From a virus (Duplodnaviria; Caudoviricetes): a stretch of 52,593 bases of DNA. The notes below the pieces were generated by a model. That model made no database searches, had not been told where the DNA came from, and saw nothing but the letters and a program-made list of their open reading frames with translations. The translations under genes and the position numbers were made by a program. The DNA lies in the IMG/VR virus record IMGVR_UViG_3300017747_004549, positions 1 to 52,593 of that record; one strand, 5' to 3'. This document shows positions 1-14,267 of the stretch, piece after piece. Each line of letters opens with the position of its first letter. Position 1 is the stretch's first letter.

Positions 1-123
1 GGCGGCGCTTTCCTTGCTCGCCGGCATTGTGTAAGCCCAAGCGCCCGGCGGCCACGCCGCGAACGTCGGCTGCCACTGCGCGCCGGTTTCCTCATCCGCC
101 CATTCGCGCAGCCCCTCGCAGAA
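1..123. repeat. Terminal direct repeat (circular assembly overlap), copy 1
   Basis: Bases 1-123 are identical to 52471-52593. Confidence 0.97.
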
Positions 124-180
124 CGTCGAAAAACGGAACGCGATCAGATCGCCCACAATGCTTGCTTGGATCATCGCCAT
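1..180 (-). CDS. 5' part of the SNF2 helicase gene, spanning the circular junction
   Basis: ATG at 180 reads MAMIQASIVGDLIAFRFSTFCEGLREWADEETGAQWQPTFAAWPPGAWAYT then MPASKESAA, in frame with the ORF at 52497; it starts right after the stop of the upstream gene at 182-184. Confidence 0.85.
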   Translation of the reverse strand, partial: MAMIQASIVGDLIAFRFSTFCEGLREWADEETGAQWQPTFAAWPPGAWAYTMPASKESAA

Positions 181-181
181 T

Positions 182-802: not shown

Positions 803-806
803 CGGC

Positions 807-1091
807 CTAGCCTTTCAACCAGTGACACAGGCCGGATTCGTCCGCCTGAGCCCCGGCGACATACCAGCGGCCGGTCTGAACTTCGACGGCGTCGATCGTC
901 CCCAGCGGATAGCCCAGGCGGGCAGCGACGCAAGCGGCCGCGATCGCTTGCTCTTCCGTTTCCATCCCGGCGAACGAAACGACCATGAACTCCGAAACGT
1001 TCCCGATGCTCGAATGGCTCATATTAAGCCGGATCCGGAACCCCCGGATCCATTGAGCATTTTCGATAAAGATCGCTTGCGAGTCGTACAC
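807..1091 (-). CDS. Small hypothetical protein (promoter-cassette gene)
   Basis: ORF preceded by AAAGGCTGAACAGTG and a cassette promoter. Confidence 0.7.
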   Translation of the reverse strand: MYDSQAIFIENAQWIRGFRIRLNMSHSSIGNVSEFMVVSFAGMETEEQAIAAACVAARLGYPLGTIDAVEVQTGRWYVAGAQADESGLCHWLKG

Positions 1092-1216
1092 TGTTCAGCC
1101 TTTCAATTCTGCCGGCCGTCTGTCGCCGCGATTTGCAGCGACCGGAAAAACAACCGACTTCCCGATTTTAGCAAGCCGCGATCGGCTTGCAACCCCAGAC
1201 CCCGAAAAATTCGGGA
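1092..1216 (-). promoter_or_regulatory. Promoter cassette 1
   Basis: TCCCGAATTTTTCGGGG palindrome, TTGCAA-16-TAAAAT, structured leader, GGCTGAA motif. Confidence 0.8.
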
Positions 1217-1420
1217 CTATTTCCGGCCGTAAGCCAGATCGGCGTCTTGCTTGATCCCGGCGACCAGTTGCCCGGCCTCGACTTCGCCGACGTTGGCGAT
1301 CAGCCGCCGCCGGCACTCTTCCAGCATCCGCCACTGAGCCGGCGTCAATTCGCTATCGTTCAGATCAGCGATCAGGCTTGCGAGAGTTGTCGGGGAAGCG
1401 ATCTTGTAAAATTCGTTCAT
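1217..1420 (-). CDS. Small hypothetical protein (cassette gene)
   Basis: 67 aa ORF after AAAGGGCTGAAACATG. Confidence 0.7.
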   Translation of the reverse strand: MNEFYKIASPTTLASLIADLNDSELTPAQWRMLEECRRRLIANVGEVEAGQLVAGIKQDADLAYGRK

Positions 1421-1550
1421 GTTTCAGCCCTTTCGATTCTGCCGGATGTTTCTCGCCGCGATTTGCGGCGAGCGGAAAAACAACCGACACACGTAATTTA
1501 TCGACTCCCGATAATTTCGGCAAGAGCAATTCCCGAAAATTTCGGGAATT
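1421..1550 (-). promoter_or_regulatory. Promoter cassette 2
   Basis: AATTCCCGAAATTTTCGGGAATT at 1528-1550; TTGCCG-17-TAAATT; structured leader 1441-1488. Confidence 0.85.
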
Positions 1551-1554
1551 ATTT

Positions 1555-1764
1555 TCAGATCAGCAGCGCGGCCCCGGAAACGTCGGCAATATTCCGGATC
1601 GACAGGACGGGATTCCGGATCCCCTCCGCGATCGCTCGCCGGCGATAAATGTCGGCGAGCTGTTCAGCGATCGCCGCGCTTGTCACGTGCCCCAGGAACG
1701 CCGGGCGGCCGTCCCGGGCGATCTGTTCCAGATCCGTCCGCTCGCAAATTACTTCCAGCAACAT
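1555..1764 (-). CDS. Small hypothetical protein
   Basis: 69 aa ORF with GAAAGGG upstream; fills the gap between cassettes. Confidence 0.55.
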   Translation of the reverse strand: MLLEVICERTDLEQIARDGRPAFLGHVTSAAIAEQLADIYRRRAIAEGIRNPVLSIRNIADVSGAALLI

Positions 1765-1783
1765 CGAAAAACCCTTTCATCCT

Positions 1784-1816
1784 AAAAGGAAGCCGGCCGG
1801 GGGAATCCCGGCCGGC
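1784..1816 (-). terminator. Intrinsic terminator
   Basis: GCCGGCCGGG-loop-CCCGGCCGGC followed by TTCCTTTT on the minus strand. Confidence 0.6.
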
Positions 1817-1825
1817 GTGATCGAC

Positions 1826-2116
1826 CTACTTCGCTTCCCAGATCTTGCGGGGGATCAGAAGAGCGTAATCGTCTCGGCATCGCTGGATCATTCCGCCGCC
1901 GGCGTACAGAATCCGGTTTGGTGATTTCGGATCCGGAGCGGCATACGTTGCGACGCCGCCCACAGTCCCCAGGATTTGCCCCTCGATCGACGCGACTTCC
2001 ATCCCGTGCGCGGCCGCCATCCGCTTACAATCGGTCAGCGTGCCGGACAGAACCACGTTGTCGAGCGTTGTCGCGATCAGGTCGAGCCCGTAATGCGAAG
2101 GATGGGTAATCAGCAT
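1826..2116 (-). CDS. Small hypothetical protein (cassette gene; starts MLITHPSHY)
   Basis: Start reassigned to the ATG after AAGGGCTGATTAAA; the longer ORF runs through the promoter. Confidence 0.7.
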   Translation of the reverse strand: MLITHPSHYGLDLIATTLDNVVLSGTLTDCKRMAAAHGMEVASIEGQILGTVGGVATYAAPDPKSPNRILYAGGGMIQRCRDDYALLIPRKIWEAK

Positions 2117-2247
2117 TTTAATCAGCCCTTGTCTTTGCCGGTCGTTTCTCGCCGCGATCGCGGCGAGCGGAAAAACAACCGACGGGCCAGATCTTAATCG
2201 AACCGCCGCGCGACTTGCAAGAGCAATTCCCGATATTTTCGGGAATT
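2117..2247 (-). promoter_or_regulatory. Promoter cassette 3
   Basis: AATTCCCGAAAATATCGGGAATT at 2225-2247; TTGCAA-18-TAAGAT; structured leader 2137-2183. Confidence 0.85.
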
Positions 2248-2258
2248 TATTTCCGCGC

Positions 2259-2293
2259 ATAAAAACGGCCGCGGGGTCGTCCTCCCGCGGCCG
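2259..2293 (-). terminator. Intrinsic terminator upstream of the cassette cluster
   Basis: CGGCCGCGGG-loop-CCCGCGGCCG followed by TTTTT. Confidence 0.75.
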
Positions 2294-2343
2294 CCGTTCC
2301 CGAACCGCGCCCAGGCCACGCGGTCGTTCTGCCGGTCGAAATT

Positions 2344-2991
2344 CTAGCCGGCTCGCTCTTCACTTTCCAGCCGGGCGAGCTCTTCCCTTTCCTCCGGAGT
2401 GTAGCCGGCGATTAGCTCATCCGCCGGGGGTTTCGCCTGGGGCTCCGCCGGGGGCGTATTGAGCCGCTGGGCGTTGCCGGGCAGCTCCGGCGACTCTCCG
2501 GCCGTTTTTTCGTCCCGGGGGCCCGGAACGGCCGTTTCCGGAGCTTTGGCGGGCAGCTTTTGCCCCTCCGTGCTGAACATCCGGCCGCCCAAGATCCGCT
2601 TCGCCTCTTCCAGCTTCTCCGCCCGGAACTTCTCCGGATCCGCCGCGAACCGCTTTGCTAGCTCGCCATTTTTCGCCGCCGCGAACATCGCCGCGGCATA
2701 TCTGGCCGCGCGAACCGCCTCCTCTTGCTTGGCTTTCGCCATCGCTTCCGCCTGGGCAGCTTCCGCGGCCGTCGGCACCTTCCACACGCCGGCGACGAAC
2801 ATCCACCCGCTGAGTGCCTGAGCAACCAGATCGACCGCCCAGCCCCTCCGCTCCGGATCTGTCCAATCTTGTTTGAGCTTCTCGACTTTCTGAACATCGA
2901 GCCACGATTCCTTCGCGATCTGCTCCGCCGTTCTCGCGTCGAGTTTCTCGACGTCAAAATCATCCGCCAAGTGCCCCAGGATCCTTGCCAT
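2344..2991 (-). CDS. Hypothetical protein (starts MARILGH)
   Basis: ORF with AGGAAAGG RBS; Ala/Glu-rich. Confidence 0.7.
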   Translation of the reverse strand: MARILGHLADDFDVEKLDARTAEQIAKESWLDVQKVEKLKQDWTDPERRGWAVDLVAQALSGWMFVAGVWKVPTAAEAAQAEAMAKAKQEEAVRAARYAAAMFAAAKNGELAKRFAADPEKFRAEKLEEAKRILGGRMFSTEGQKLPAKAPETAVPGPRDEKTAGESPELPGNAQRLNTPPAEPQAKPPADELIAGYTPEEREELARLESEERAG

Positions 2992-3041
2992 TGTGAAAAC
3001 CTTTCCTAAGAAACAACCAGCCCGCCGGCGAAGTGCCGGCG

Positions 3042-3455
3042 TCAATTCGATTTTTCAGCCCGCTCGATTGCTAGCCGGACCAGCCCGCCGGCCGGATCGA
3101 GCGGATCGATCGGCAGCCCGCCGGCGAGCGCCGCCGCGGCGGCCTTGATCGTCCCCAACCAGTCGGCCGCCGCCCCTTCGAGCAACCACCCGCGGATCGT
3201 CGCGAAATTTTCACGACAGCCGGCCGGGCCCCATTCGTTCATTTGTGCGATTCTCGCCGGACAGTCGCAGCCGGGGAAATCGCCAACCCCCAGATCCCGC
3301 AGGATCGCCCGGAGCTGCGACCCCGGCCCCGTCGTCAGCTTGCCGGAGCTGCAGCGCGCGACCACCTTCCGCGGCGGATGCTTCGTGATGATTTCGCGGC
3401 CGCACTTCCGGCAGCGAACCTTACCAGCTTCGAGCTGTTCAAAGTCGCATCGCAT
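3042..3455 (-). CDS. Cys-rich hypothetical protein at the end of the tail-tip cluster
   Basis: CRKC, GPGSQL..IL, GCDC..R..QMNEWG..GC; adjoins the upstream gene. Confidence 0.65.
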   Translation of the reverse strand: MRCDFEQLEAGKVRCRKCGREIITKHPPRKVVARCSSGKLTTGPGSQLRAILRDLGVGDFPGCDCPARIAQMNEWGPAGCRENFATIRGWLLEGAAADWLGTIKAAAAALAGGLPIDPLDPAGGLVRLAIERAEKSN

Positions 3456-3456
3456 T

Positions 3457-4158
3457 TTAGAGCGCCAAAACATCCAGGGGGGTTATCAGATCGTAATAGC
3501 AAGAGTCAACCAGATCTTCGATCGGCGTTCCCATAAACGTACCTTTTGAAACATACTCAGCGTCCGTGATCGCTTCGCTGATCGTCGTGCAGTCCGGCGC
3601 TGTGCTGCCTAGATTTTTCAGCCATTCATAGGACGTTCCGGAACCGCTCGCCGACGGAACAAAATCGGAAAATGTTAGCTTGATATACAAATAATAATCG
3701 CCGTCCGACGCCAGCGCGACCCGCACTTCCCAGCCGTAATACATCACGTCCGCGAAGGTGTTGGTGACGCAGGGGAGAGTTTCGGGATTGTCATCAATCG
3801 CCAGCTTCCAGCAGCAGGTATCCGCCCAATCAAATTCAGCCAGAACCGTTTCGACGCCGTCGGTTAGATAACTAACATCCCAGCTAGTGCCGGAGTCGCA
3901 AGCGGCGCGAGTTAAAACATAAGTCCCGGAAAGATCTTGGCAGTCGGCATCGTCGCAACCGTTGATTGTCGCCCCGGCGTTCCCAGTCGCGAGCGCGGCG
4001 TCAACGTCAAGCTGGATTTCGTCGGGGGAATCAGGGTCGCAGATTCCGCACGGCTCCGGCGGGCAAGTGTAGTTGCAACAAGGATCGTCTTCCGTCCCGT
4101 CGATCCAGTCGCCATCTTCGTTGGTCGCGGGGAGCTCATCAATTAGCATTACCGTCAT
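3457..4158 (-). CDS. Cys/Asp-rich putative virion tail-tip protein
   Basis: DDPCCNYTC..CGIC N-terminus, acidic and beta-rich; follows the large tail gene. Confidence 0.55.
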   Translation of the reverse strand: MTVMLIDELPATNEDGDWIDGTEDDPCCNYTCPPEPCGICDPDSPDEIQLDVDAALATGNAGATINGCDDADCQDLSGTYVLTRAACDSGTSWDVSYLTDGVETVLAEFDWADTCCWKLAIDDNPETLPCVTNTFADVMYYGWEVRVALASDGDYYLYIKLTFSDFVPSASGSGTSYEWLKNLGSTAPDCTTISEAITDAEYVSKGTFMGTPIEDLVDSCYYDLITPLDVLAL

Positions 4159-4169
4159 CGATCGTTATC

Positions 4170-6641
4170 CTATGGCGGAGTACATGGCGCGGCCGTCAAG
4201 ATCGTTTCCCAGGCCGGCGTTTCAGCGGAGCACAATTCGAGCGCCGCCGTGACGCGCTTCATTTCCAGTTTTCGCGAAGCGTAGCGGGCATCGATAACAA
4301 CGGCCGTCGGATGCAACGCCACGTCGACCACTTGCCACCCGCCCATCCAATTCAAAACCACTTGATCGCCGGCGATCCCGTAATGTCCTCGCGGATTTGT
4401 TGCCGTTGTCGGCAGCGGATCCGGCGCAAGATTGAACGGCGACGGGCTTGTCGGCAAAAATGAACCTTCGACCAGCGTCGCCGCGCTCCCGCACATATTT
4501 TCCGCCAGTGTCGCCGTTGCCGTGATGCAAATTTGCTGGCAGTTAGTCACTTTCCAGTAATTTTGCGATCCGGCAAACTCGCAGCGCGTCGCCTTGAACA
4601 GCGCGCCGTCCGCCCAGCGCGGAAAAAAACCTTGATCGTCGTGAAGCGTGATCGTCTCGCCGGGCCATTTTCCTTGCTCCCAGGCGGCCGTAACCGTTCC
4701 CGTTGCTATCGATCCCGACGGCGTCCCGGATATATAGCCCTCGCATTCCCAGGCCAGGGTTTCCATCCAGATAATTTCGTACGTCGGGAGCGTCTGAACC
4801 ACTCCGCCCGGGAGCGTTCCCCAGATCGTCGTCGGGCCCGTCGTCACCGTTGTATTGCTGCGGAACTGCGCGAAGCCCTCGATATAAACGGGATCATCTT
4901 CGCTGTCGGATCCCAGCAGCCCGGACCCAAGCGCCGGCGCTTGCCACATCCCGCGCGGCGTGGAATACCAGTCGGCGACGATGATATTCCCGCCGACGGC
5001 GTCGTAGTTGCCGGTCGTTGCGTTGTACTGGATTTGCGTCGCCAGCGCCGAACCGTTGGGCGTCAGCGGCGTAAGTAGCCGGAACTGGATTAGATTTGTT
5101 GGCGACGTGCTGCGCACGACATAAAGCGGCAGCCGAACGCCGCCGTATTCGTGCAAGCCGGACAATCTCGCCGGCCCGTAAAAATCCCCGTTTTTCGCGG
5201 GAACAGCTCCGCGCTTTGTGGCGTAGTCATCGACTAGCAAGATCCAGCATTTTTCCAGCCGTTCCATGCTGCCGGCGACCACCCGGCGAACGTAGCCCGG
5301 ATGAACGCCGGAGCTGTTCGCCTGAATCATCCCGCCGGATGTTTGCGAGCTATCGTAAACCTCGACAATATTCGGCAGCCGGGGGTAATTCGGCAACGTC
5401 CGCCGCGCGGTATCGAGCGGCGCAAAGTTTTCGCCCTCGAAATCGATCCCGCCGGCCCCGGCGTCGATCGCGAAGTCCGGCAGATCGACCGGCATTCCGG
5501 GATATTTGAGCACTTCCGTCAACAGCCCGTCGCCCAGATCCCGAATGATCGTTTCCCGGATCGAATCATTTGGCAGCCAGCTTTTTTGAATCCCCTTCAA
5601 GAGCACGTGGGCGCGGCTTAGGGCTTCCGCCCCGTTGGCGAGCAACCACCCGTCGGCGAGCTCTTGCGCCGTCGCTTTCATTTCCGGCAGATTCAGAAAC
5701 GTATCGCGCGTACGATGTTTGACGACGGCCGGCGTTGACGCCCACACTGTCGCGATTGTCCCTTTGATCGGCTCCGGCGTCCGCGTCGGAATGTCAAGCC
5801 ACGTGATCGAGTTGCTTGTCGCCCAGTTGCTCGCGGCCGTCGTGTCGGCTTCCGTCCCGTAGTCTTCCAGCCGCTTCGCGAAATAAACCCGGATTTTTTC
5901 GGGAGCAACGGCCGCCGGCGGGCTCCACGGCCGGGCGTCGTATTCCAGATCGGCCGCCACTTCCTTGTCGAGCGGCGTCGCGTCGATCGCCAGCTTCCGG
6001 ATTGAATAGGTATCGGCTTCCGGATCGTAAACGATCGTCCGGCTCGCCTGGGCGACCACTTCGTTCAGAAACCGCCAAGCATTATTCCCGGAGTTATACA
6101 GATCTTCCGGCGGCGGGCTTTTGATCCCGGCGACGTTGCGGAAAGCGCCCAGGCCGACAACGTCGCCCCATAGCAGCTTGAGTAGCTCGTTCCACGTGTA
6201 GGGCGTCCGCGCGGCCTTCACCGTTTCGCGGACGTAAAAACGATCGGGATCCCCGCCGGCCCAATTGCGACAATTCAGCGCCCGGACGCTAGTCGACCAC
6301 CGATTGAGGAAATATCGCCAGTCCACAACCCGGCATAGGTAAGCGGCGTCGGGATCGTCCGGCCGGCCGCCGGGATTCGCGCGGTGCGCAGCAATCACCC
6401 AGACCTTGCGAAGCTTGATTTTTTTTCCGCCGGCGCTGAACACCAGCTCGACCGGCCCGCCCTTGCGCAGTCCGGCTCGATTCAGATCCCGCCGGAGCAT
6501 CAGGACGTATCCCGATCCGTGCGACGCGCCGACCACGAACCGAAAGCTATTTGCCTTTCCGGCCGCCAGCGGATAAAGATCAGGATCCGCGACCAGCGCC
6601 GGAAAACCGCCCAGCGTCACCACGTTGGAAAACTCAGGCAT
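4170..6641 (-). CDS. Large putative tail-tip / baseplate-hub protein (823 aa)
   Basis: Length, Thr/Gly-rich beta C-terminus and context; no recognisable catalytic motif. Confidence 0.55.
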   Translation of the reverse strand: MPEFSNVVTLGGFPALVADPDLYPLAAGKANSFRFVVGASHGSGYVLMLRRDLNRAGLRKGGPVELVFSAGGKKIKLRKVWVIAAHRANPGGRPDDPDAAYLCRVVDWRYFLNRWSTSVRALNCRNWAGGDPDRFYVRETVKAARTPYTWNELLKLLWGDVVGLGAFRNVAGIKSPPPEDLYNSGNNAWRFLNEVVAQASRTIVYDPEADTYSIRKLAIDATPLDKEVAADLEYDARPWSPPAAVAPEKIRVYFAKRLEDYGTEADTTAASNWATSNSITWLDIPTRTPEPIKGTIATVWASTPAVVKHRTRDTFLNLPEMKATAQELADGWLLANGAEALSRAHVLLKGIQKSWLPNDSIRETIIRDLGDGLLTEVLKYPGMPVDLPDFAIDAGAGGIDFEGENFAPLDTARRTLPNYPRLPNIVEVYDSSQTSGGMIQANSSGVHPGYVRRVVAGSMERLEKCWILLVDDYATKRGAVPAKNGDFYGPARLSGLHEYGGVRLPLYVVRSTSPTNLIQFRLLTPLTPNGSALATQIQYNATTGNYDAVGGNIIVADWYSTPRGMWQAPALGSGLLGSDSEDDPVYIEGFAQFRSNTTVTTGPTTIWGTLPGGVVQTLPTYEIIWMETLAWECEGYISGTPSGSIATGTVTAAWEQGKWPGETITLHDDQGFFPRWADGALFKATRCEFAGSQNYWKVTNCQQICITATATLAENMCGSAATLVEGSFLPTSPSPFNLAPDPLPTTATNPRGHYGIAGDQVVLNWMGGWQVVDVALHPTAVVIDARYASRKLEMKRVTAALELCSAETPAWETILTAAPCTPP

Positions 6642-6912
6642 TTTTACCTCGGCTCAGAACACGAAAGCCGGCCGGCAAGTCGTCCGGGATTCCAGGGACC
6701 GGATCGCCGGCGGGATGGATTGCGAAACGCCCCTCGGTTCCGTCGGGGCTGCAAGCTGCCCCGTTCAGGTCAAGCCCAATCGGCAGACCTACAAAACGCA
6801 TCGGCTTCCCGCATTGCTCGCAGTGAATCTTAATGTCGACGGAAAATCGGCCTATATCTTCCAGGCGAGCAACCGACGCATTGACAAAAAACTGTTCATG
6901 TTTGCAAGTCAT
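6634..6912 (-). CDS. Small hypothetical protein with CxH and CxxC
   Basis: 92 aa ORF overlapping the start of the next gene. Confidence 0.6.
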   Translation of the reverse strand: MTCKHEQFFVNASVARLEDIGRFSVDIKIHCEQCGKPMRFVGLPIGLDLNGAACSPDGTEGRFAIHPAGDPVPGIPDDLPAGFRVLSRGKNA

Positions 6913-6939
6913 CAGATCGCCAAACTCCCCGGCGGATTG

Positions 6940-7137
6940 TCATAAGTTATTTTCTGCCGTTTCTTTCGCGGCTTCCGCGGCTTCCTTGCTGGAATGCGAA
7001 GATATTACCTTCCCAGTGATATCCTCGACCGTCCAGAGCAGCGTTGTTTCTTCCGGAGCATTTAGCCCGCCCTTGCGAAAATGCTCAGGATCGAGCGGCT
7101 CGACGATCAAAAACGGCCGGTAAAATTTCTTGCTCAT
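6940..7137 (-). CDS. Small hypothetical protein (starts MSKKFY)
   Basis: ATGA overlap with the MuF stop. Confidence 0.55.
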   Translation of the reverse strand: MSKKFYRPFLIVEPLDPEHFRKGGLNAPEETTLLWTVEDITGKVISSHSSKEAAEAAKETAENNL

Positions 7138-8138
7138 GCTGCAATTCTCCGCCAGCTTTCCGACGGCAGGAACGGGGGCCACTCGACAAATTGCCGCGGC
7201 GGCTCGATCCCCGTTTCGAGCCATTGTTGCGCAAACCGAACGCCCTTAGCGGCCGCCCGGCGAACCGTTAGCGGATTCCAGCCGCAACGACAATTCCAGT
7301 CCCATGGCGGCCGGAACATCGCCCAGACCGGATCTGATTTGTGATAAATATTTGTCCCGTCCAATCCCAGGAACTCCAGGGCTAAATGCTCCGGCCGGGC
7401 GCGATCGTCGCGGATCGGATAATAGGCGCGATACGGGAAAGCGTCGGCAACGAACGGATCCGCCAGGGCAGCTTCGCCGCCGTCGCTGTAGGCGCTGTTT
7501 ACATTGTTCCGAAAAACTTGCTCGACGTGATGTTCGGCAAGCGGCAACGTCGGGAGCTCATCCCGGACCCTCGCCAAAAAATCGGTCCGGCTCGTTTTCT
7601 CGAACACGTTTTCAGCCAGGATCCCGCGGAGCTGTTCGATCGTGTCGCGCTGGATCGCTCCGGAAACCGTGAACGCATTAGCGCGGGCGCTGGAAGCCAT
7701 GCTGTAGAAAGTTTGCGGCGCGAGTGCTTCGGCCGTCGTGAGCTTTTGGAACGCGCTGTCGATAATCGGAAAATCGACTTTCGGCCCGGGCCCGTCCGGC
7801 GGATAGAACGCGAACCGGACGTCCCGCGGGGGGATCAGCGGCGGCCCGCCGGGATTCGCTCGCGCGAGCGGCGCGACAATGCCGGAACTGCCCAGGACGT
7901 AGCCGGCGACAGTCGAATCATAAACCGCGGCTTCGAGCTCGAAAGAAAACCGGCGGACTATTTCGAGTAGCCCGTCGGTCAAGCTGATCGCCTGGGGATT
8001 CGCGAACCGATCCAGCGCCGCCAGGACAGCGGCCGCGAAGCCGCGCGCGATCGCCGCGCCGGCTTCGCTGCCGGCGTCGATCAGCTCGTCCGCTTTCGCA
8101 CTCCGCGCGCTCTTGGCCATTATTGAGACTCCGGCCAC
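7134..8138 (-). CDS. MuF / SPP1 gp7-like head morphogenesis protein
   Basis: AFTVSG, VFRNNVNSAY, PYRAY..IRDDRARPEH and PPWDWNCRC motifs. Confidence 0.88.
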   Translation of the reverse strand: MAGVSIMAKSARSAKADELIDAGSEAGAAIARGFAAAVLAALDRFANPQAISLTDGLLEIVRRFSFELEAAVYDSTVAGYVLGSSGIVAPLARANPGGPPLIPPRDVRFAFYPPDGPGPKVDFPIIDSAFQKLTTAEALAPQTFYSMASSARANAFTVSGAIQRDTIEQLRGILAENVFEKTSRTDFLARVRDELPTLPLAEHHVEQVFRNNVNSAYSDGGEAALADPFVADAFPYRAYYPIRDDRARPEHLALEFLGLDGTNIYHKSDPVWAMFRPPWDWNCRCGWNPLTVRRAAAKGVRFAQQWLETGIEPPRQFVEWPPFLPSESWRRIAA

Positions 8139-8380
8139 GTGCTGCGCTTGTGACGTAAAAGCGACTGGATCAGGTTGTCGACGGCGCGCGGCGTCTTGAG
8201 CCGAAAAACAAGATCGGCGACAACCCCGGGCGAGAATTCTACTTTTAGACTCAGGGCGACCGCTTCCGGCGGCCCCGATCCGTCCTGATTGTTACACCAA
8301 TCGCCGACGGTATAGCTAACAATTCGCAGCCCTTCGAGCGCGACGCGCCGCGAGCTTACGGGGGGGATTCGCTTAGCCAT
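8120..8380 (-). CDS. Small hypothetical protein
   Basis: 86 aa ORF coupled to its neighbours. Confidence 0.55.
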   Translation of the reverse strand: MAKRIPPVSSRRVALEGLRIVSYTVGDWCNNQDGSGPPEAVALSLKVEFSPGVVADLVFRLKTPRAVDNLIQSLLRHKRSTWPESQ

Positions 8381-8732
8381 TGCGTTCTTTCTCCGGCTTG
8401 CTAGTTTGACCGACCAGGGGCCCTTCGCCTAGATCGCAGAACCTTTCCCGTAGCTCCGGTGATCCCAGCCCGCCGGGCGTCGCGATCGCGACCGAACCCG
8501 GCCGGCAGCTCCGGAGCACAGCGCCCAGCGACGCGCCCGGCGTTTGGATCGCGATCTTCGACCCGCAGGCGAACAAAGTAAATTCCTGAGTAAACATCGC
8601 GCCGACGTTTGACCGGCCGCAAACCGGGCAGCGCAGGAACAGCTCCGACAGATACCAGCCGACCCGGACCCGATCGACCCAGCGATCCGGCAGGTTTGCG
8701 GCTTCGATCGATTCGCTTTGACCATCACTCAT
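8373..8732 (-). CDS. Hypothetical protein with CPVCG
   Basis: ATGA overlap with the MTase stop; start MSDGQ. Confidence 0.5.
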   Translation of the reverse strand: MSDGQSESIEAANLPDRWVDRVRVGWYLSELFLRCPVCGRSNVGAMFTQEFTLFACGSKIAIQTPGASLGAVLRSCRPGSVAIATPGGLGSPELRERFCDLGEGPLVGQTSKPEKERNG

Positions 8733-9694
8733 TTTCCGGATTCTCCCTGAGTTGTTGCCGCGCTGTCGAGCTCCGCGATCGCTTCGCCGATCCGCCGGTT
8801 TGATAGCTCGACTTGCGACGCGCGAGCGTCGAAACACAAATACCGACGGCCGGCGAGCACCGCGGCCGCGGCCGTCGTGCCGGATCCGCTGAACGGATCG
8901 CAGACCACTCCGCCCGGCGGACAGAACATCAACACAAATTCACGCGCGAGCGACTGGGGGAATGGGGCCTCGTTGTCATGCGCCAACGGGGATCCCATTA
9001 GCCCGCCGCCGACCTTATGCCAGCGGACGTTGCCGGGATTCGCTAGTTTCGGCTTAGCGTATTTTTTCGCCCGCGTCCGCTTGTCGCTCTTCGTGCGATT
9101 TGTCGCCACTCCGCCGGCTTCGTATTTCGGGGGCTCGCCGATCGCCGTTGGATCGCCGTAAGGAAGCTTGACCACGTCGCGCGACGTTGCGCAAACGATA
9201 AGCTCGTAATTGTCCCGCAACCAGTCCGGCCCACCGCTGCCGGGCGTCCCCCAGCGCGCGAATATTGGGGGCTTGCGTACCCGGAATGTGGGCCCGAACT
9301 TGTCGCAGCGGCAAGCGCAGAACGTGCCGGTCGCCCCCAGGGCAGAAAGTCGCCGCCCACAGCCGCGACACGATTTCGAGCGCTTCAGATCCGCGACCAG
9401 CATAAACGGCGTCGCGCTGTTCTCGAAATCCTTTGTAAACCCGTTCACCACGAACGCGACCAGCCCGCGGGATACCCGCGTCGCTTCCGTGAAAATTTCG
9501 AGCATCCAGGAAACCCAGGCTTCGCCGACCAGCGACGTAATGCCGGGCTCGCCGTTGTAGCGTCGCTGCGCTTCGTAGGGGGGCGAGCCGAAAATCAGAT
9601 CGATCGACTTGCTTTCCATCGCGCGGAGCGATCCCAGCGCGTCGCCTTGCGACACACTGCCAAGTCGAGTTATCAGGCTGTTTGTAAAGCTCAT
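8729..9694 (-). CDS. Beta-class DNA methyltransferase, likely N4-cytosine
   Basis: DLIFGSPPY catalytic motif before H.APFP and the DPFSGSGTT SAM-binding motif. Confidence 0.88.
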   Translation of the reverse strand: MSFTNSLITRLGSVSQGDALGSLRAMESKSIDLIFGSPPYEAQRRYNGEPGITSLVGEAWVSWMLEIFTEATRVSRGLVAFVVNGFTKDFENSATPFMLVADLKRSKSCRGCGRRLSALGATGTFCACRCDKFGPTFRVRKPPIFARWGTPGSGGPDWLRDNYELIVCATSRDVVKLPYGDPTAIGEPPKYEAGGVATNRTKSDKRTRAKKYAKPKLANPGNVRWHKVGGGLMGSPLAHDNEAPFPQSLAREFVLMFCPPGGVVCDPFSGSGTTAAAAVLAGRRYLCFDARASQVELSNRRIGEAIAELDSAATTQGESGK

Positions 9695-10116
9695 TCGGGC
9701 TTGCTCCTGGGATCGGCCGCGGGATATCGGAAACCGTAAACAAGTCGCTCCCGCGCGGCCGCCAGAACGTCGGCCGGCAGCAGATCCGGGAAATGGATCG
9801 CGGCGAGCTCTTCTGCCAGCAGCACCCAGGACGCGCCGACGCAGTCGCCGGGATCTGGCGCGGCGATCAGACAGTCATACTCGCCGAACATAAAGCAGCC
9901 GCTGGGCGCTGGGCGCTGGGCGCGAATATGTACGCGCGTCGCCGGCTCGCGAATCTTGTAAATCGAAACCGTTTCGCCGATCGCCGGCTCATCGCCGGTC
10001 TGATCGAGCGCGTCGAGCTCGCCGGATTTCGACAGCACCACCCGCAACAGCGCCGGAGCTCGCCGGAGCATTAGCGACCGGCCGTCGGCCGGCCCGCCGT
10101 GAAATTTGATCGTCAT
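9691..10116 (-). CDS. Hypothetical protein (starts MTIKFHGGPADG)
   Basis: GAGGGCTGAAAAAATG start motif; GGP.DG N-terminus. Confidence 0.7.
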   Translation of the reverse strand: MTIKFHGGPADGRSLMLRRAPALLRVVLSKSGELDALDQTGDEPAIGETVSIYKIREPATRVHIRAQRPAPSGCFMFGEYDCLIAAPDPGDCVGASWVLLAEELAAIHFPDLLPADVLAAARERLVYGFRYPAADPRSKPE

Positions 10117-10131
10117 TTTTTCAGCCCTCAC

Positions 10132-10168
10132 AAAAGAGAAAACGCCGCCGGCACAATGCCGGCGGCGG
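10132..10168 (-). terminator. Intrinsic terminator
   Basis: CGCCGCCGGCA-loop-TGCCGGCGGCG then TTTTCTCTTTT. Confidence 0.7.
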
Positions 10169-10216
10169 GCTCGCCGCGCACGACTCCGCGCGGCGAGCTG
10201 TTATTCGTTGCACCCA

Positions 10217-10504
10217 TTACGCAATCTCCATATCGGGGAACAAGTCGAGCTGCCCCCGGCAATCGCCCAGGCCACGCAGCAGGGGGAGTTGCTTCGCCGG
10301 CCGGGCGTCGATCAGGATCGGCCGGAGCTCCGCGGCCGCGGCCGGCTCTTCGTCGAGCTCGACTTCGCCGACCCCGTCGCAATCGCGGCAAGCAACGTAG
10401 CCCGTCCCGTTGCAAGCGTCGCAGATTCGCCGCTCGCCACCCGTCCCGCCACAGCGGCCGCAGGACAGCTTGCAACCTTCGCACGTTTCACAGATCGTCA
10501 ACAT
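10217..10504 (-). CDS. DnaJ-type zinc-finger protein with C-terminal QLDLF
   Basis: Four CxxCxG(xG) repeats, acidic linker, QLPLL and QLDLF. Confidence 0.75.
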   Translation of the reverse strand: MLTICETCEGCKLSCGRCGGTGGERRICDACNGTGYVACRDCDGVGEVELDEEPAAAAELRPILIDARPAKQLPLLRGLGDCRGQLDLFPDMEIA

Positions 10505-10608
10505 TGTTCAGCCCTTCGCGTTTGGTGTTTCGTGTCTCGTCTTCCCGATTTTACCGGGAAGCCGGCCGGCCGGCAAGAGGGATTCCCCGAATTTTTCGGG
10601 AAATCCCT
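10505..10608 (-). promoter_or_regulatory. Promoter cassette 4
   Basis: AGGGATTTCCCGAAAAATTCGGGGAATCCCT inverted repeat; TTGCCG-17-TAAAAT; AAGGGCTGAACAATG. Confidence 0.85.
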
Positions 10609-10621
10609 GGGCGGCCGGCCT

Positions 10622-10819
10622 TTAGCTTGCCGGCTTGCCGACAACAGTCAGCCGGCCAGTAAGCTTGCAGAACGTCACGCAGTAGCGGGAAGAGTGCATT
10701 GCGGCCGGGCCCCATGTTTCGGCGCTAAAAGCGGCGAGAGTGTATTGGGATTCCCAGCAGCCAGCGGACGGCGTGTACCCAGCTTCTACGACCGCGGCCT
10801 TGAGTTGTTCCAGCGTCAT
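10622..10819 (-). CDS. Small hypothetical protein (cassette gene)
   Basis: 65 aa ORF after AAGGGCTGAAAAATG. Confidence 0.7.
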   Translation of the reverse strand: MTLEQLKAAVVEAGYTPSAGCWESQYTLAAFSAETWGPAAMHSSRYCVTFCKLTGRLTVVGKPAS

Positions 10820-10951
10820 TTTTCAGCCCTTCGCTTGCGGCCGCGAATCCCGCGGGAGAAAGCCCCGCGGCGGAAGATTCACAACCGACACACGTAATTT
10901 ATCGACCGGCCGGCGGCCGGTCAATCCCAATTCCCGAAATTTTCGGGAATT
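10820..10951 (-). promoter_or_regulatory. Promoter cassette 5
   Basis: Palindrome 10929-10951; TTGACC-17-TAAATT; structured leader 10837-10889. Confidence 0.85.
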
Positions 10952-10962
10952 ATTTCGGGCAG

Positions 10963-11247
10963 CTATCGCGAATAATGCACACTGACAAGCCGGCGGAGTA
11001 ACTTGACAGCGGCGTCGGCGACCGGCTCGTCGGCCTCGCCGGCGGCCGCGCGTTCCAGGCTGCGGATTAGCCCGTTCCGATTTACTTCTAGGGTCGCGAT
11101 AATCCGCTTGGTGAGCTCGACAGTAGACGCCGCGCCAGTGACGTTCAGGCTTTCCAGATTCGCGAGCGTGCGAAACTGCAGCGCGAGCGACTTGTTCAGG
11201 CGGGCGATTTGCTTCCCAGTGATTTCGATCGATGTTTTCGTGATCAT
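10963..11247 (-). CDS. Small helical hypothetical protein
   Basis: 94 aa ORF after AAAGGCTGAAAAAAATG. Confidence 0.7.
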   Translation of the reverse strand: MITKTSIEITGKQIARLNKSLALQFRTLANLESLNVTGAASTVELTKRIIATLEVNRNGLIRSLERAAAGEADEPVADAAVKLLRRLVSVHYSR

Positions 11248-11313
11248 TTTTTCAGCCTTTGAAATGGATCCCAGGGGAACGGCCGGCGATCGCCGGCCGC
11301 GGAGCGAATGAAC

Positions 11314-11505
11314 CTAAGCGGCGGGGAAATTGTGTTCCCGGAGCGCGATCGCGAAGGCGACGTCCTCCGCGTAGCCCTCCGACTTGAGGACGCGAACCCG
11401 ATTAAAAATGAGCTCTTTCGTGAGCTCCGGAGCGTAACGGGTCTTGAGCCCGGCTTCCATGCGGGCCAGATTCTCTTCGATGTTTTGGCGGATGAAGTTT
11501 GTCAC
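11314..11505 (-). CDS. Small hypothetical protein (cassette gene)
   Basis: 63 aa ORF after AAAGGGCTGAACAGTG. Confidence 0.7.
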   Translation of the reverse strand: MTNFIRQNIEENLARMEAGLKTRYAPELTKELIFNRVRVLKSEGYAEDVAFAIALREHNFPAA

Positions 11506-11604
11506 TGTTCAGCCCTTTCGCGTTTGTGGTGATTGTCTCGACTCCCCGATTATATCGGGAAGCCGCGCTGCCGTCAATAGCAATTCCCGAAACTTTCGGG
11601 AATT
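11506..11604 (-). promoter_or_regulatory. Promoter cassette 6
   Basis: Palindrome 11582-11604; TTGACG-17-TATAAT. Confidence 0.9.
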
Positions 11605-11755
11605 ATTGGAAAAATACTGTCTTGGCGATTTCGCCGACGCAAACCACCCGCGAACATCCGCAGCGCTTCGCGATCCGCAACCAGCGATCGACCTCCGCGG
11701 CCGTGCTGCAAACCTTCGAGAAACCGTTCATCCCGTAAGCCGTAAGCGTTGTCAT
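11603..11755 (-). CDS. 50 aa hypothetical protein, absent from the ORF track
   Basis: Hand translation MTTLTAYGMNGFSKVCSTAAEVDRWLRIAKRCGCSRVVCVGEIAKTVFFQ; GGGGA RBS; fills the gap. Confidence 0.55.
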   Translation of the reverse strand: MTTLTAYGMNGFSKVCSTAAEVDRWLRIAKRCGCSRVVCVGEIAKTVFFQ

Positions 11756-11806
11756 TTTTCGATCCCCCAGGGGGCGGCCGGCGTCGCCGGCCGCCAGTGA
11801 TTGAAA

Positions 11807-12019
11807 CTAAACCGCCAGATCCGGGCCAGCGGCGACGATCGTCAGGAAGTAGCTGGCGATCGTCCGCGGGTCTTCGACCGACGCGAACCGGAACGAGCGG
11901 CCGAAAGCTTCGATAAAAAACCCGTCATTGGATCCCGCGACCACTTGGCACCACTTCCCCGGGATCGCCCGGATCGAGTCGCAAGAATTCAGAACTTCGG
12001 CAAGCGTGATCGTCTTCAT
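11807..12019 (-). CDS. Small hypothetical protein (cassette gene)
   Basis: 70 aa ORF after AAAGGGCTGAACAATG. Confidence 0.7.
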   Translation of the reverse strand: MKTITLAEVLNSCDSIRAIPGKWCQVVAGSNDGFFIEAFGRSFRFASVEDPRTIASYFLTIVAAGPDLAV

Positions 12020-12112
12020 TGTTCAGCCCTTTGTGTTGGTGATTGTCTCGACTCCCCGATTATATCGGGAAGTCGATCGATCGTCAACAGCAATTCCCGA
12101 AACTTTCGGGAA
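12020..12112 (-). promoter_or_regulatory. Promoter cassette 7
   Basis: Palindrome 12092-12112; TTGACG-17-TATAAT; nearly identical to cassette 6. Confidence 0.9.
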
Positions 12113-12155
12113 ATAATCCGGCGGGCTTCCTTGCCCGCCGGCGTCCGGCCCCGGC

Positions 12156-12674
12156 TTATCGCTTGCGCGGCTTCCCGTAGGCTGTCAGGCTTGCTTGGAA
12201 TTCCATCGCCCGCGACCATGTTTCGGCCGTCTTCGGATCGCCCTTGGCGTGCTGGATCCGAACCGCGGAGTCGAGCCCCAGGTGGGCGTGATGCTCGCCG
12301 CAATCGATGACCACCTGTTCCATTTCATAGGGAACCATTTTGTAAACGCCGTCAACATTCCGGAGCGACTCGCCGCGAACAATCTCCCGGCCCACAGCCA
12401 GCACGGTAAGGAACTTGTCGTAGGGCTTGCCGCCCATCGTGATACAACCACAGCGAACCACGTCGCCGGGCTGAACGTCGGCCGCCGGCTTGCTCCGGAT
12501 CGCTTCCAGGAAATTGCGGGTCGCGGCCCCGCGCTTGGTGAACTGCCGGCCGGATCCGCCGCAACCGAAACACGTTGTTCCGTATTGCTGGCAGTAAGAA
12601 TAATTCCCGGATCCCCCGCAACGGCTGCAGGTCTTCGTTTCGATCTTGTTCAGGATTTCGGCGACTTGCGACAT
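12156..12674 (-). CDS. Hypothetical protein with N-terminal CxxCxGxG zinc finger
   Basis: CSRCGGSG and CFGCGGSG. Confidence 0.75.
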   Translation of the reverse strand: MSQVAEILNKIETKTCSRCGGSGNYSYCQQYGTTCFGCGGSGRQFTKRGAATRNFLEAIRSKPAADVQPGDVVRCGCITMGGKPYDKFLTVLAVGREIVRGESLRNVDGVYKMVPYEMEQVVIDCGEHHAHLGLDSAVRIQHAKGDPKTAETWSRAMEFQASLTAYGKPRKR

Positions 12675-12808
12675 TGTTCAGCCCTTCGTTTGCGGCCGCG
12701 AATCCCGCGAGCTGATCAGCCCGCGGCGGAAAGATTCACAACCGACGCCCCTAATTTATCGGGAAGCCTCGCGGCTTGCAATAGCAATTCCCGAAATTTT
12801 CGGGAATT
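12675..12808 (-). promoter_or_regulatory. Promoter cassette 8
   Basis: Palindrome 12786-12808; TTGCAA-17-TAAATT; structured leader 12692-12746. Confidence 0.85.
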
Positions 12809-12822
12809 TATTTCCGCGCATG

Positions 12823-12853
12823 AAAAAGCCCGGCGGAATCCATTCCGCCGGGC
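12823..12853 (-). terminator. Intrinsic terminator
   Basis: GCCCGGCGGAAT-GG-ATTCCGCCGGGC then TTTTT. Confidence 0.8.
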
Positions 12854-12874
12854 GTCGGGCGTCGATCGACCAGA

Positions 12875-14119
12875 TTAAGCCGGGACCAGCAAGCCGGCGA
12901 ACTTCCGGTCGCTCATTGTGATAATTTCCCCGCCCAGCGTTTCGAGCTCGCTGGCTTCCGCCGCCCGGCCGTCCCGATCGGCGACGTGCGCGGCGGCCGT
13001 GATCGACTGACACAATCCGAACCGCGACAGATCCCCAGACCCCAGCAGATCCGCCAGGATCGCGGCCTTGCGTTCATCCGTGATCCCGTATTCCTCGCTG
13101 ACATTGGCGACAGCAACCCGGGCGTCCGGCAGCTCTTGCGTTGTCGCATTGTTCAGCGCCGCGATGTAGCCCGCGAATTTGCCGGCGTCGAACGCCGTCG
13201 CGATCGCGTCGTTCACCTTCGACCAAATTACCTGGGATTCAAGCCGGCGCGTTTCATCGCTCTTGACGATCAGCCCGTCGCCGGCGTCGTTGGTTTTGCC
13301 GGCGTGGATAATCGACACGCCGTCGGCCCATACGTTGAAATTCGCACAAACTCGCCGCATGATTGCCAGCTTGACATTCAAGCCACCTTGGCCCGTTTCG
13401 CTATTGTCGAGCCGGACCGCGGCGTTGTGCACGTCGCCCGATTGACCATACCAGCGCGATTGCCAACCGTCCCCAGGGTTAAACGTGCGATCGGTGGAGA
13501 CTTCCGCTTCGATATGCGGAGCCACTCCGAACATCTCGAACCCGCCGTCCCAGAGTCGCGCCTTCCAGAGCTGCGCGCCGACTTCCCGGAACTTCGTCGC
13601 CGCACAGAAAAACAGATCCGAATTGTCGAGCGCCCGGTATTTGTCCGACAGCACAGCGCGAACCCGGCCGTCGAGCGTCCGGACCAAAAACCGCTTGCCG
13701 GCTTGCCGGGAAAGGATCCCGCGGACCAGATCGCCAAGAAGATCGTTGTACTCCCGGCCGGCGAGATTGTCGGCGAACTTGACCGGCACTTCCAAGCGCC
13801 CCAGGAGCTGCGAGCTCGCCGTTCGCGAAAGCGGCATCGCCCCGACCCCGGCCTTGAGCGCGATCCCGTTCGGTCGGTCGCTCTTGCTGGCTTCATCCGC
13901 GGCCCGTTCGGCATCTTCCCAGGACAGATACAACCGGCCGTCGACTTCAAACGTGCGATCGCTGCCGGCGAAGACCAGCAGCCCGTCGTCGGTATAGCTG
14001 AGTTTCTCGACTGGATAGATCAAGTCGCGCTTCGCGGCTTTTTGTCGCTCGATTTCAGCAACCACGCCGGCGATAGCAGAACGATCGAAAGTCAACCCCA
14101 TGAACTCGTGAACAGCCAT
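12875..14119 (-). CDS. DUF932-like phage/plasmid protein
   Basis: RAVLSDKYR.LDN, NSETG.G, R.VCAN and IIHAG motifs as I recall them for this family. Confidence 0.7.
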   Translation of the reverse strand: MAVHEFMGLTFDRSAIAGVVAEIERQKAAKRDLIYPVEKLSYTDDGLLVFAGSDRTFEVDGRLYLSWEDAERAADEASKSDRPNGIALKAGVGAMPLSRTASSQLLGRLEVPVKFADNLAGREYNDLLGDLVRGILSRQAGKRFLVRTLDGRVRAVLSDKYRALDNSDLFFCAATKFREVGAQLWKARLWDGGFEMFGVAPHIEAEVSTDRTFNPGDGWQSRWYGQSGDVHNAAVRLDNSETGQGGLNVKLAIMRRVCANFNVWADGVSIIHAGKTNDAGDGLIVKSDETRRLESQVIWSKVNDAIATAFDAGKFAGYIAALNNATTQELPDARVAVANVSEEYGITDERKAAILADLLGSGDLSRFGLCQSITAAAHVADRDGRAAEASELETLGGEIITMSDRKFAGLLVPA

Positions 14120-14256
14120 TTTTCAGCCCTTCAAAATTTCGCGGCCGTTGATTGCCGCGGGAAATCCCGCGGCGGAAACAACCAACAACCGACAAGGGAG
14201 AATATCGCATGGCGGCAAAATCATTGCAACCCCAATTCCCGAAATTTTCGGGAATT
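14120..14256 (-). promoter_or_regulatory. Promoter cassette 9
   Basis: Palindrome 14234-14256; TTGCAA-19-TATTCT; structured leader 14142-14193. Confidence 0.8.
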
Positions 14257-14267
14257 CTCTCAAGTTT

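Follow-up and report, generated by a model that had tools for sequence, protein, structure and literature searches.

A repeated bulged hairpin that looks like a new structured leader motif in the early promoter cassettes of an uncultivated freshwater phage

We analyzed the complete genome of an uncultivated freshwater phage (IMG/VR record IMGVR_UViG_3300017747_004549; 52,593 base pairs (bp), circular as assembled; hereafter “the window”) and found that six of its predicted early mRNAs begin with the same bulged hairpin. The repetition of the hairpin is genuine and no artefact. The hairpin is a single module within a larger promoter cassette, itself repeated, and three sister cassettes lack it. 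It looks like a new structured cis-acting leader motif within a cassette that resembles the early-promoter stem-loop (PeSL) cassettes of T4-type phages, in a phage that is itself novel. We infer both the transcription start and the function of the leader from the sequence.

Six predicted leaders share one bulged hairpin

The initial annotation had described six minus-strand leaders that begin just after a -10 box and fold in the same way. Folding and comparison with shuffled sequences confirmed this, and the stems that it had quoted proved correct. The common fold, present in six of six leaders, consists of a lower stem of 11-13 bp, an unpaired (U)UUCCG on the 5' side, an upper stem of 7-9 bp and a loop of 4-5 nucleotides (nt). 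The 3' strand is continuous opposite the bulge in every leader, with nothing unpaired. Each element is one interrupted stem-loop of 47-55 nt, with a total helix of 19-21 bp that the 5-6-nt bulge splits in two, and its lower stem pairs from nucleotide 1 or 3 of the predicted transcript. The loop sequences vary among the copies (AAAUC, GAUC, CUUUC and AUUU), and a U-tract after the hairpin is absent in all six.

The copies, numbered A1 to A6, fall into three subfamilies: A4, A5 and A6 (predicted starts at 2183, 1488 and 1158) form subfamily 1, A2 and A3 (12746 and 10889) form subfamily 2, and A1 (14193) stands alone as subfamily 3. Hairpin A1 (14141-14193) has a lower stem of 13 bp, the bulge UUUCCG, an upper stem of 7 bp and the loop AUUU. 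In A2 (12692-12746) a lower stem of 12 bp and an upper stem of 9 bp flank UUUCCG and the loop is GAUC, and in A3 (10837-10889) stems of 12 and 8 bp flank UUCCG below the loop CUUUC. The three copies of subfamily 1 all carry UUCCG and an upper stem of 8 bp. Their lower stems have 11 bp in A4 (2137-2183; loop GAUC), 10 bp plus one U.U mismatch in A5 (1441-1488), and 11 bp in A6 (1111-1158), where the whole fold includes 5 G.U pairs.

The leaders fold at -27.4 to -33.0 kcal/mol, with z-scores of -3.15 to -5.35, and shuffled sequences matched the native fold in 0, 0, 0, 1, 0 and 0 of 200 cases for the six leaders. The string with which all of them start, GTCGGTTG, occurs 11 times in the window, exclusively on the minus strand, where about 2 occurrences are expected; 11 was reached in 0 of 100 shuffles. 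Six of the 11 sites are the leader coordinates, and in six of six the string begins 6-7 nt past the -10-like hexamer. The other five (6877, 26364, 33516, 39894 and 43105) lie in coding sequence, without a promoter and without UUCCG. A strict descriptor, UUCCG flanked by two perfect stems, was scanned on both strands and found five sites in the window, every one of them in a cassette; it skips the copy at 1488 on account of its U.U mismatch.

A degenerate seventh copy had been suspected at 50190-50230. This proposal did not survive: the segment lacks both GTCGGTTG and the palindrome that marks the cassettes (see below), and it folds at -12.4 kcal/mol (z +0.11), with 104 of 200 shuffles as good. 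It does carry a promoter-like TTGCCG-17-TAAGTT and the shared ribosome-binding motif.

The fold is maintained in the RNA while the bulge is invariant

G.U pairs, strand asymmetry and stems that are not interchangeable show directly that the fold is selected at the RNA level. Of the 117 predicted pairs over the six leaders, 19 are G.U. The sense RNAs fold at -25.7 to -32.2 kcal/mol and the antisense RNAs at -14.1 to -24.0 kcal/mol, the sense strand being stronger by 2.9-12.7 kcal/mol. The earlier suggestion that selection acts on RNA rather than on a DNA cruciform is therefore borne out. In a strand-swap test the stems paired 7/7 with their own strands, compared with 1-3/7 for the upper stem and 2-5/7 for the lower stem across subfamilies. 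Even subfamily 1 is not uniform: its upper stem begins with a G-C pair in one copy and with a C-G pair in two. These pair counts come from a custom script; MAFFT alignments of all six or of three copies misplaced the bulge and were set aside. Helices that persist despite changes in their sequence, and that do so only on the transcribed strand, argue for selection on RNA.

The covariation on which the initial annotation had relied stands in so far as the stems do compensate. It is drawn from only six paralogues in three subfamilies of one genome, with about two upper-stem and three lower-stem types among them, and part of the stem variation may reflect module exchange between cassettes instead of stepwise compensatory mutation. 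A5 (1463-1488) and A3 (10864-10889), each with the 17 nt upstream, are identical over 26 nt that comprise the -10 box, the discriminator and +1 to +9. Their hairpins nevertheless belong to different subfamilies, which hints at recombination between cassettes.

The bulge behaves quite differently from the stems. Mean pairwise identity among the six hairpin-bearing cassettes is 0.32 for the 16 nt upstream of the -10 hexamer, 0.34 for the discriminator and 0.74 for the -10 hexamer itself, but it is 1.0 for positions +1 to +9 (GTCGGTTGT) and for UUCCG in six of six copies. The bulge had been called invariant, and the contrast with the neighboring promoter spacers (about 0.32) upholds that description. 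Since the flanks have diverged, recent duplication is not the cause of this invariance. The bases opposite the invariant 5' strand are not constant: U6 is met by G, A or U, U9 by A or G, and U2 by G or by no base at all. The distance of the bulge from +1 varies as well (positions 12-16 up to 16-21), yet the bulge always lies between the helices. Its position is fixed relative to the helices and not to +1, which argues that the RNA structure sets it.

These observations bear on the idea of an element that acts as DNA, whether by forming a cruciform or by serving as an operator for a DNA-binding protein within the first transcribed stretch. In its favor, positions +1 to +9 never change although the bases with which they pair in the RNA do, as might be expected of contacts with a regulator or with the escaping polymerase. 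However, the stem sequences differ so much among subfamilies that a single protein could not read them as DNA, each G.U pair becomes an A.C mismatch on the other strand, where the fold is weaker, and the bulge tracks the helices instead of the promoter. We regard a DNA-level element as very improbable.

The hairpin is one module of a repeated promoter cassette

The genes of the minus strand run from 14254 to 1, across the junction of the circular assembly into replication genes and then into structural genes. From this order, the region that bears the hairpins looks like an early region. The nine sigma70-type promoter cassettes that it holds are homologous to one another and all on the minus strand; the six of class A have the hairpin and the three of class B lack it. 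Each cassette comprises, in order, a 19-bp palindrome, a -35-like hexamer, a spacer of 16-18 bp, a -10-like hexamer, 6-7 nt and the predicted +1 G of GTCGG. The class-A hexamers are TTGCAA, TTGACC or TTGCCG at -35 and TAAATT, TAAAAT, TAAGAT or GATATT at -10. A promoter consensus scan recovered four of the nine cassettes (11/12 or 9/12 match) plus B3. In all six class-A leaders 17-21 nt separate the hairpin base from the start codon, and the ribosome-binding motif AAGGGCTGAAmAATG follows the hairpin.

Cassette A1 (14117-14254) contains the palindrome at 14236-14254, TTGCAA-17-GATATT, 7 nt, the predicted +1 G at 14193, the leader, AAGGGCTGAAAAATG and the start of a gene for a 414-amino-acid (aa) protein. 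Cassette A2 (12672-12806) has its palindrome at 12788-12806, TTGCAA-17-TAAATT and a predicted +1 at 12746, and leads into a gene for a 172-aa zinc-ribbon protein; an intrinsic terminator (12828-12853) lies just upstream. Cassette A3 (10817-10949; palindrome 10931-10949, TTGACC-17-TAAATT, predicted +1 at 10889) precedes a 65-aa gene. Cassette A4 (2114-2245; palindrome 2227-2245, TTGCAA and TAAGAT, predicted +1 at 2183) precedes a 96-aa gene and has a terminator-like site upstream at about 2261-2293. Cassette A5 (1418-1548; palindrome 1530-1548, TTGCCG-17-TAAATT, predicted +1 at 1488) leads to a 67-aa gene, and A6 (1089-1217; degenerate palindrome 1201-1215, TTGCAA-16-TAAAAT, predicted +1 at 1158) to a 94-aa gene with a GTG start.

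The class-B promoters are nearer to consensus (TTGACG-17-TATAAT, 11/12 match). Their leaders are CA-rich, begin G(T/A)CGAGACA and fold at merely -1.5 to -2.6 kcal/mol; these cassettes are natural controls for the class-A leader. B1 (12017-12112) has an upstream palindrome at 12094-12112, TTGACG-17-TATAAT, a second palindrome over the -10 box and a CA-rich unstructured leader that begins with GTCGAGACA at 12052. B2 (11503-11602; palindrome 11584-11602, predicted +1 at 11542) has the same anatomy. B3 (10502-10602) is class-B-like, with a slightly degenerate palindrome at 10584-10602, TTGCCG-17-TAAAAT and the unstructured leader GACGAGACA from 10541. A sigma54 reading (GG-N10-GC upstream of -35, by eye) was dropped, as class B has TTGAC there and the -10 box is good in nine of nine cassettes.

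The ribosome-binding motif extends beyond the cassettes. In the form AAGG(G)CTGAAmAATG it stands before more than a dozen genes, mostly early (starts at 14119, 12674, 12019, 11505, 10819, 10504, 10116, 2116 and 1420), with looser minus-strand copies at starts 11247, 1091, 802, 50180 and about 34110. It is conserved far beyond what a Shine-Dalgarno sequence needs and may be a target of translational control. Many replication and structural genes have another motif, TTTTTCGAGGGG or TTTTTCAGGG, 8-10 nt ahead of them (examples at 548-559, 28806-28817, 30622-30632, 43499-43509, 16579-16589 and 17020-17030). In its loose form this pattern has 25 matches compared with 15 expected, and 25 was reached in 2 of 100 shuffles.

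The 19-bp palindrome, TTCCCGAAAnTTTCGGGAA, is centered near -51 of all nine early promoters. In class A the pattern is perfect in four of six cassettes, one base off in A4 and degenerate at 1201-1215. A second copy, TTCCCGATATAATCGGGGA, spans the -10 box of class-B promoters (12055-12069 and 11545-11559). The palindrome looks like an operator for a dimeric DNA-binding protein. As RNA it folds at -12.3 to -12.8 kcal/mol (z about -4.5), and given this fold it may act as an attenuator. A pattern scan found zero exact copies in IMG/VR. The C-terminal part of the product of a 206-aa open reading frame (182-802, minus strand) has a weak HTH_31 match (E-value 0.01), which makes this product a candidate palindrome binder. 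All three homologues of this reading frame (94, 57 and 51% identity) start at its Met88 (ATG 541), which has its own TTTTTCGAGGGG motif, and arginine is abundant in the 87-aa N-terminal extension; the frame may yield two isoforms.

Among known systems, the cassette as a whole is by analogy closest to the PeSL cassettes of T4-type phages, which combine strong early promoters with stem-loops and mediate gene shuffling, as set out in PMC2839356 and PMC4122927. The two systems share a repeat unit of about 100 bp, in which a strong sigma70-like early promoter with A/T-rich DNA ahead of its -35 box is combined with at least one stem-loop and with a Shine-Dalgarno sequence and start codon; both stand before small genes of unknown function and show signs of cassette exchange. 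With promoters as predicted, all nine cassettes repeat the arrangement of sigma70-like promoter, stem-loop, Shine-Dalgarno sequence and start codon within about 100 bp. On the other hand, this phage is not T4-like: its genome has 52.6 kb, its terminase is at most about 37% identical to that of any cultured phage (26-37% for the best matches), and the cassettes do not reside in the hyperplastic regions of a T4-like myovirus. The hairpin also differs in that it has two helices with an invariant one-sided bulge, lacks a U-tract, lies wholly inside the transcript and coexists with separate terminators.

It could be argued that the hairpin is simply the stem-loop of such a mobile promoter/terminator cassette, attenuating upstream transcription and offering homology for recombination, with no RNA role specific to the leader. 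Nine cassettes of about 100-130 bp with a strong-looking promoter, stem-loops, and a Shine-Dalgarno sequence with a start codon, mostly before small genes without a family, fit this proposal, and so does the 26-nt stretch that A5 and A3 share in front of different hairpins. In T4-type cassettes, according to PMC2839356, the stem-loop may precede -35, overlap -10 or follow -10; inverted repeats occur at all three places here. However, the hairpin lacks a U-tract in six of six copies, terminators with U-tracts already stand upstream of several cassettes, and neither attenuation nor recombination needs G.U pairs, a one-sided invariant bulge or an invariant 5' strand. This explanation therefore seems quite unlikely.

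Known families and relatives

The initial annotation had not recognized the hairpin as a named family. A search with Rfam 15 likewise gave no match at the gathering score in the whole window, and among six weak matches at an E-value of 5 or less over positions 1-14400 none overlapped a leader. K-turn and T-loop identities and pairing between the bulge and a Shine-Dalgarno sequence were judged by eye and rejected, as the sequence does not fit.

A covariance model of the kind proposed earlier, R1, was built from the three copies of subfamily 1. It recovered those copies at 75-78 bits but gave the other three leaders 13.6-20.5 bits in a shifted register, and it was rejected as too narrow. Plain G+C hairpins at 8472-8502 and 6671-6711 scored equal to these other leaders.

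To find relatives, we searched metagenomes, genomes and IMG/VR with an alignment of the 414-aa protein family, and IMG/VR with an alignment of the 172-aa protein family. The 414-aa protein as a single query in IMG/VR returned nothing, a terminase search returned one relative (38% identity), and blastn of positions 10000-14400 against cultured phages gave no match. Pattern scans of IMG/VR for the palindrome and for the leader with its ribosome-binding site returned 0, 17 and 70 loci, chance-like single matches without the leader or multiple palindromes. The nearest homologues of the 414-aa protein (89, 83, 83, 74 and 67% identity) are known as proteins only, and so is a 52,702-bp contig with homologues at 56 and 57%. 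Three relatives with DNA, L093, L094 and L095, encode a homologue with 49-50% identity; IMG/VR contains L095 as well, under L333/G001, a fragment of 52.9 kb rated 46% complete. A further relative, G002 (L334), has a 414-aa homologue at 43% and a terminase at 47% identity, and its 28 kb are without repeated cassettes.

The UUCCG-bulge hairpin was absent from the related loci (about 3.4 Mb): the descriptor gave one weak match in 2.38 Mb and none in 1.02 Mb, and the 80 loci from the 172-aa family search were without it. L093 and L095 have repeated promoter cassettes of their own, and in both the copy before the 414-aa homologue has a hairpin at the predicted +1, of unrelated sequence. In L093 this hairpin folds at -24.1 kcal/mol (z -3.55), and both cassettes, the second one included, carry a hairpin. 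In L095/G001 it has an 8-bp stem beginning CGUUCCGC; the four cassettes there comprise one strong and one weak hairpin and two unstructured leaders. A hairpin near the 5' end is thus recurrent but not universal in this loose group of relatives, and the comparative support that it lends is weak. So far the bulged form is unique to this genome among the loci searched.

The marine relative L094 shows a different arrangement. The leader of its 414-aa homologue (9858-10000) is long and highly structured (-53.2 kcal/mol, z -2.84). Within a 15-bp terminator-like hairpin there lies a stretch with complementarity to the beginning of the predicted transcript, which could permit a terminator/antiterminator alternative.

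A leader that may protect the transcript and present a recognition bulge

Our best reading, which we hold tentatively and rate at somewhat under an even chance, is that the hairpin is a protective and insulating stem-loop at the 5' terminus that also presents a recognition bulge to a partner. The six elements would be the first 48-55 nt of six early mRNAs transcribed from host-type (sigma70-like) promoters. A stem that begins at nucleotide 1-3 would leave no single-stranded 5' end, and the transcript would so be shielded from 5'-end-dependent decay, in which pyrophosphate removal is followed by entry of RNase E or RNase J. The hairpin would also sequester the variable 5' sequence and in this way keep the shared ribosome-binding site, 17-21 nt downstream, accessible. 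Because the invariant GUCGGUUGU strand and UUCCG exceed what a stabilizer needs, we take them as a possible docking surface at which a partner acting in trans would bind, be it RNA polymerase or a protein of the phage or of its host. Such a partner would give class-A transcripts a fate other than that of the hairpin-less class-B transcripts. The initial annotation had likewise suggested that the bulge could be a recognition site for a protein or an RNA.

The passages of PMC3997798 on 5' ends report that 5'-terminal base pairing stabilizes bacterial mRNAs against RNase E-dependent decay, and that RppH, the pyrophosphohydrolase that triggers decay, requires unpaired 5' nucleotides. At the predicted +1 the class-A leaders of subfamily 1 have 0 nucleotides unpaired, and those of subfamilies 2 and 3 have 0-2. 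They resemble the 5'-terminal stabilizers of the ompA and papA type, as these passages present them, in that pairing lies within 2 nt of the predicted 5' end and the element is short, G+C-rich and upstream of the ribosome-binding site. Known stabilizers, however, need no conserved sequence, whereas here a pentamer bulge and a nonamer strand are invariant in six copies. The T7 phi10 leader is a further stem-loop of the 5'-terminal stabilizer kind.

Several points weigh against this reading. Protection of the 5' end is a borderline matter in subfamilies 2 and 3, where either nucleotides 1-2 are left unpaired or U2 bulges out. The +1 positions are predictions, and a search of sequencing runs listed one DNA run with the phage and zero RNA runs. 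The decay machinery of the host is presumed, and the sequence evidence consists of six paralogues in one genome. A pure stabilizer leaves the invariant bulge and 5' strand unexplained. Three sister promoters without the structure indicate that the hairpin is dispensable for early expression as such, and the distant relatives L253 and L254 show no hairpin at the corresponding place.

Possible roles in antitermination, translational control and processing

Another possibility is antitermination, in which the nascent leader, by its bulge and 5' strand, would bind polymerase directly, as HK022 put does, or through a small phage protein, as in lambda nut/N and HIV TAR/Tat, so that terminators are read through. 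The passages of PMC9378689 that deal with HK022 putL describe a structured, bulged stem-loop RNA that starts at nucleotide 3 of the early sigma70 (PL) transcript, has terminators downstream and makes polymerase ignore them. The leader is placed similarly, within a few nt of the predicted early +1, and its invariant unpaired bases on covarying stems resemble a binding surface. However, put has about 70 nt, two stem-loops and an RNA triplex, while the leader has 47-55 nt and a single interrupted stem-loop, and we saw no likeness of sequence. Nor does the leader resemble lambda nut, with its conserved boxB loop and adjacent boxA in the transcript: the loops differ among the copies, none of them is boxB-like, and a TGCTCTT string lies upstream of -35, outside the leader.

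The early region is unusually rich in strong intrinsic terminators, which speaks for antitermination. The best terminator-like sites of the first 16 kb, all on the minus strand, are at 12828-12853, 12118-12141, 10143-10167 and 1792-1816, and a further hairpin with a T-run was read by eye at about 2261-2293; all five lie clustered in the early 14 kb, and two or three are directly upstream of a cassette. The site at 10143-10167 adjoins the ribosome-binding site of the gene at 10116, the head of a 7.8-kb operon, and that at 1792-1816 precedes a 69-aa gene at 1764. Between terminator and gene there is no room for a promoter in either case, so that expression of the 10116 operon and of the gene at 1764 needs read-through. 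Class A accounts for all of the last three promoters ahead of the replication and structural block. All genes of the phage lie on one strand, and the counts of promoter-like and terminator-like sites in 16-52.6 kb are not above those in shuffles (sigma70-like matches 8 vs 4.7 and 4 vs 4.4 expected).

Other evidence speaks against antitermination. Leaky termination would equally explain genes behind terminators, class-B units also have terminators behind them, and at least one promoter-like site (32703-32732) occurs in the late block. No N-like or Q-like protein was identified among the early-region proteins scanned (20 against Pfam, 19 of them against PHROGs); the sole hint is a phrog_6060 match with an E-value of 0.0033 on the 172-aa protein. 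We consider antitermination possible but rather doubtful. In its fuller form the leader would be a new promoter-proximal antitermination RNA at six early promoters of a non-lambdoid phage, with UUCCG and the GUCGGUUGU strand docking on polymerase directly or through a small arginine-rich protein, so that class-A transcripts run through terminators into the long gene block and class-B transcripts stop. By analogy with known systems this fuller form is conceivable, and we find it slightly more doubtful still.

Further observations concern terminators. About 30 nt beyond the promoter-like site in the late block, TTGAAA-18-TAGGAT, there is a 15-bp hairpin with a T-rich tail, just before the gene at 32629 (32635-32732 in all, minus strand); this is a possible attenuator in the structural region. 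The string ATGCGCG follows the T-run of three terminators (12822-12828, about 2253-2265 and about 16680-16700), and the relative L093 has TTTTTTATGCGC after its terminator (9823-9835).

The leader could instead be a translational operator of the coat-protein or RegA type, to which a later phage protein binds next to the ribosome footprint in order to tune or shut off the six class-A genes. The fixed distance of 17-21 nt from hairpin base to start codon, the invariant bulge on variable stems and the strong conservation of AAGGGCTGAAmAATG past Shine-Dalgarno need would suit such a role. On the other hand, the Shine-Dalgarno sequence and the start codon lie outside the hairpin, and no RNA-binding candidate was recognized among the scanned early-region proteins. 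We judge an operator unlikely.

An RNase III site of the T7 early-mRNA type, whose coaxial helices would be cut so as to trim the leader or to separate read-through transcripts, seems no more probable than an operator. The passages of PMC1540722 on T7 sites such as R1.1 and on E. coli substrates describe helices of typically two turns, with coaxial stacking and with bulges or internal loops that shape cleavage, repeated along the early region. The leader, with 19-21 bp or about two turns interrupted by a bulge, has a helix of this kind, and cleavage itself is putative. In addition, A3, A5 and A6, without an upstream terminator, would be transcribed through. However, RNase III requires neither an invariant single-stranded pentamer nor an invariant 5' strand. 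The T7 sites have two-sided internal loops between cistrons, whereas the leader has a 5'-side bulge with invariant single-stranded sequence opposite a continuous 3' strand. At the very 5' end there is also little for cleavage to separate. The operator and RNase III readings explain the invariant bases less well or do so without a candidate protein, and the protective stem-loop with a recognition bulge remains the reading that we prefer.

The phage genome and the genes behind the hairpins

A greedy gene call over the whole window placed all genes on the minus strand. They include a large terminase subunit (34222-35772), a UvrD-like helicase (44294-45991), a primase/polymerase-like protein (46170-48044), an SNF2-type helicase (50821-52497), a DNA methylase (8729-9694) and a Mu-F-like protein (7134-8138); tRNAs number zero in the window. 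IMG/VR classes the 52,593-bp record as having direct terminal repeats. The 123-bp repeat (1-123 and 52471-52593) lies inside the open reading frame of the SNF2-type helicase gene, which runs off both ends, and so reflects overlap in the assembly of a circular or permuted genome, not a physical end. The best terminase matches among cultured phages are those of Stenotrophomonas, Xanthomonas and Gordonia phages; with only 26-37% identity, the phage is without a close cultured relative. In the contigs of the sole DNA run we found no leader variants at 80% likeness. One contig there joins 4656 to 11956, skipping 7,299 bp, but its shorter side has 21 letters, too weak for a deletion variant.

The 414-aa protein behind A1 matches phrog_1362, a family of unknown function, and 8 of its 63 listed homologues carry PF06067 (DUF932). 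In the 172-aa protein behind A2 the phrog_6060 match falls on the zinc-ribbon part, and no stretch passes alone; against profiles of solved structures it gave anti-TRAP zinc-ribbon matches only, with E-values of 0.096 and above. The four small proteins behind A3 to A6 (65-96 aa) are without a family match in Pfam or PHROGs.

Implications

Only a handful of model phages are known to carry structured cis-acting RNAs in their early transcripts, in the form of nut, put, RNase III sites and PeSL stem-loops. The element described here is compact (about 50 nt) and present in six copies with a clear split between covarying and invariant positions, and its sister promoters serve as controls, so that it could easily be tested with reporters. 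If the bulge is a docking site, the leader would represent a new interaction of RNA with a protein or with RNA polymerase, and early transcripts would be sorted into classes in a new way. Should the leader serve solely as a stabilizer and insulator, it would provide a ready-made, standardized part that combines promoter, leader and ribosome-binding site, and PeSL-like cassettes would then exist well outside the T4-like phages.

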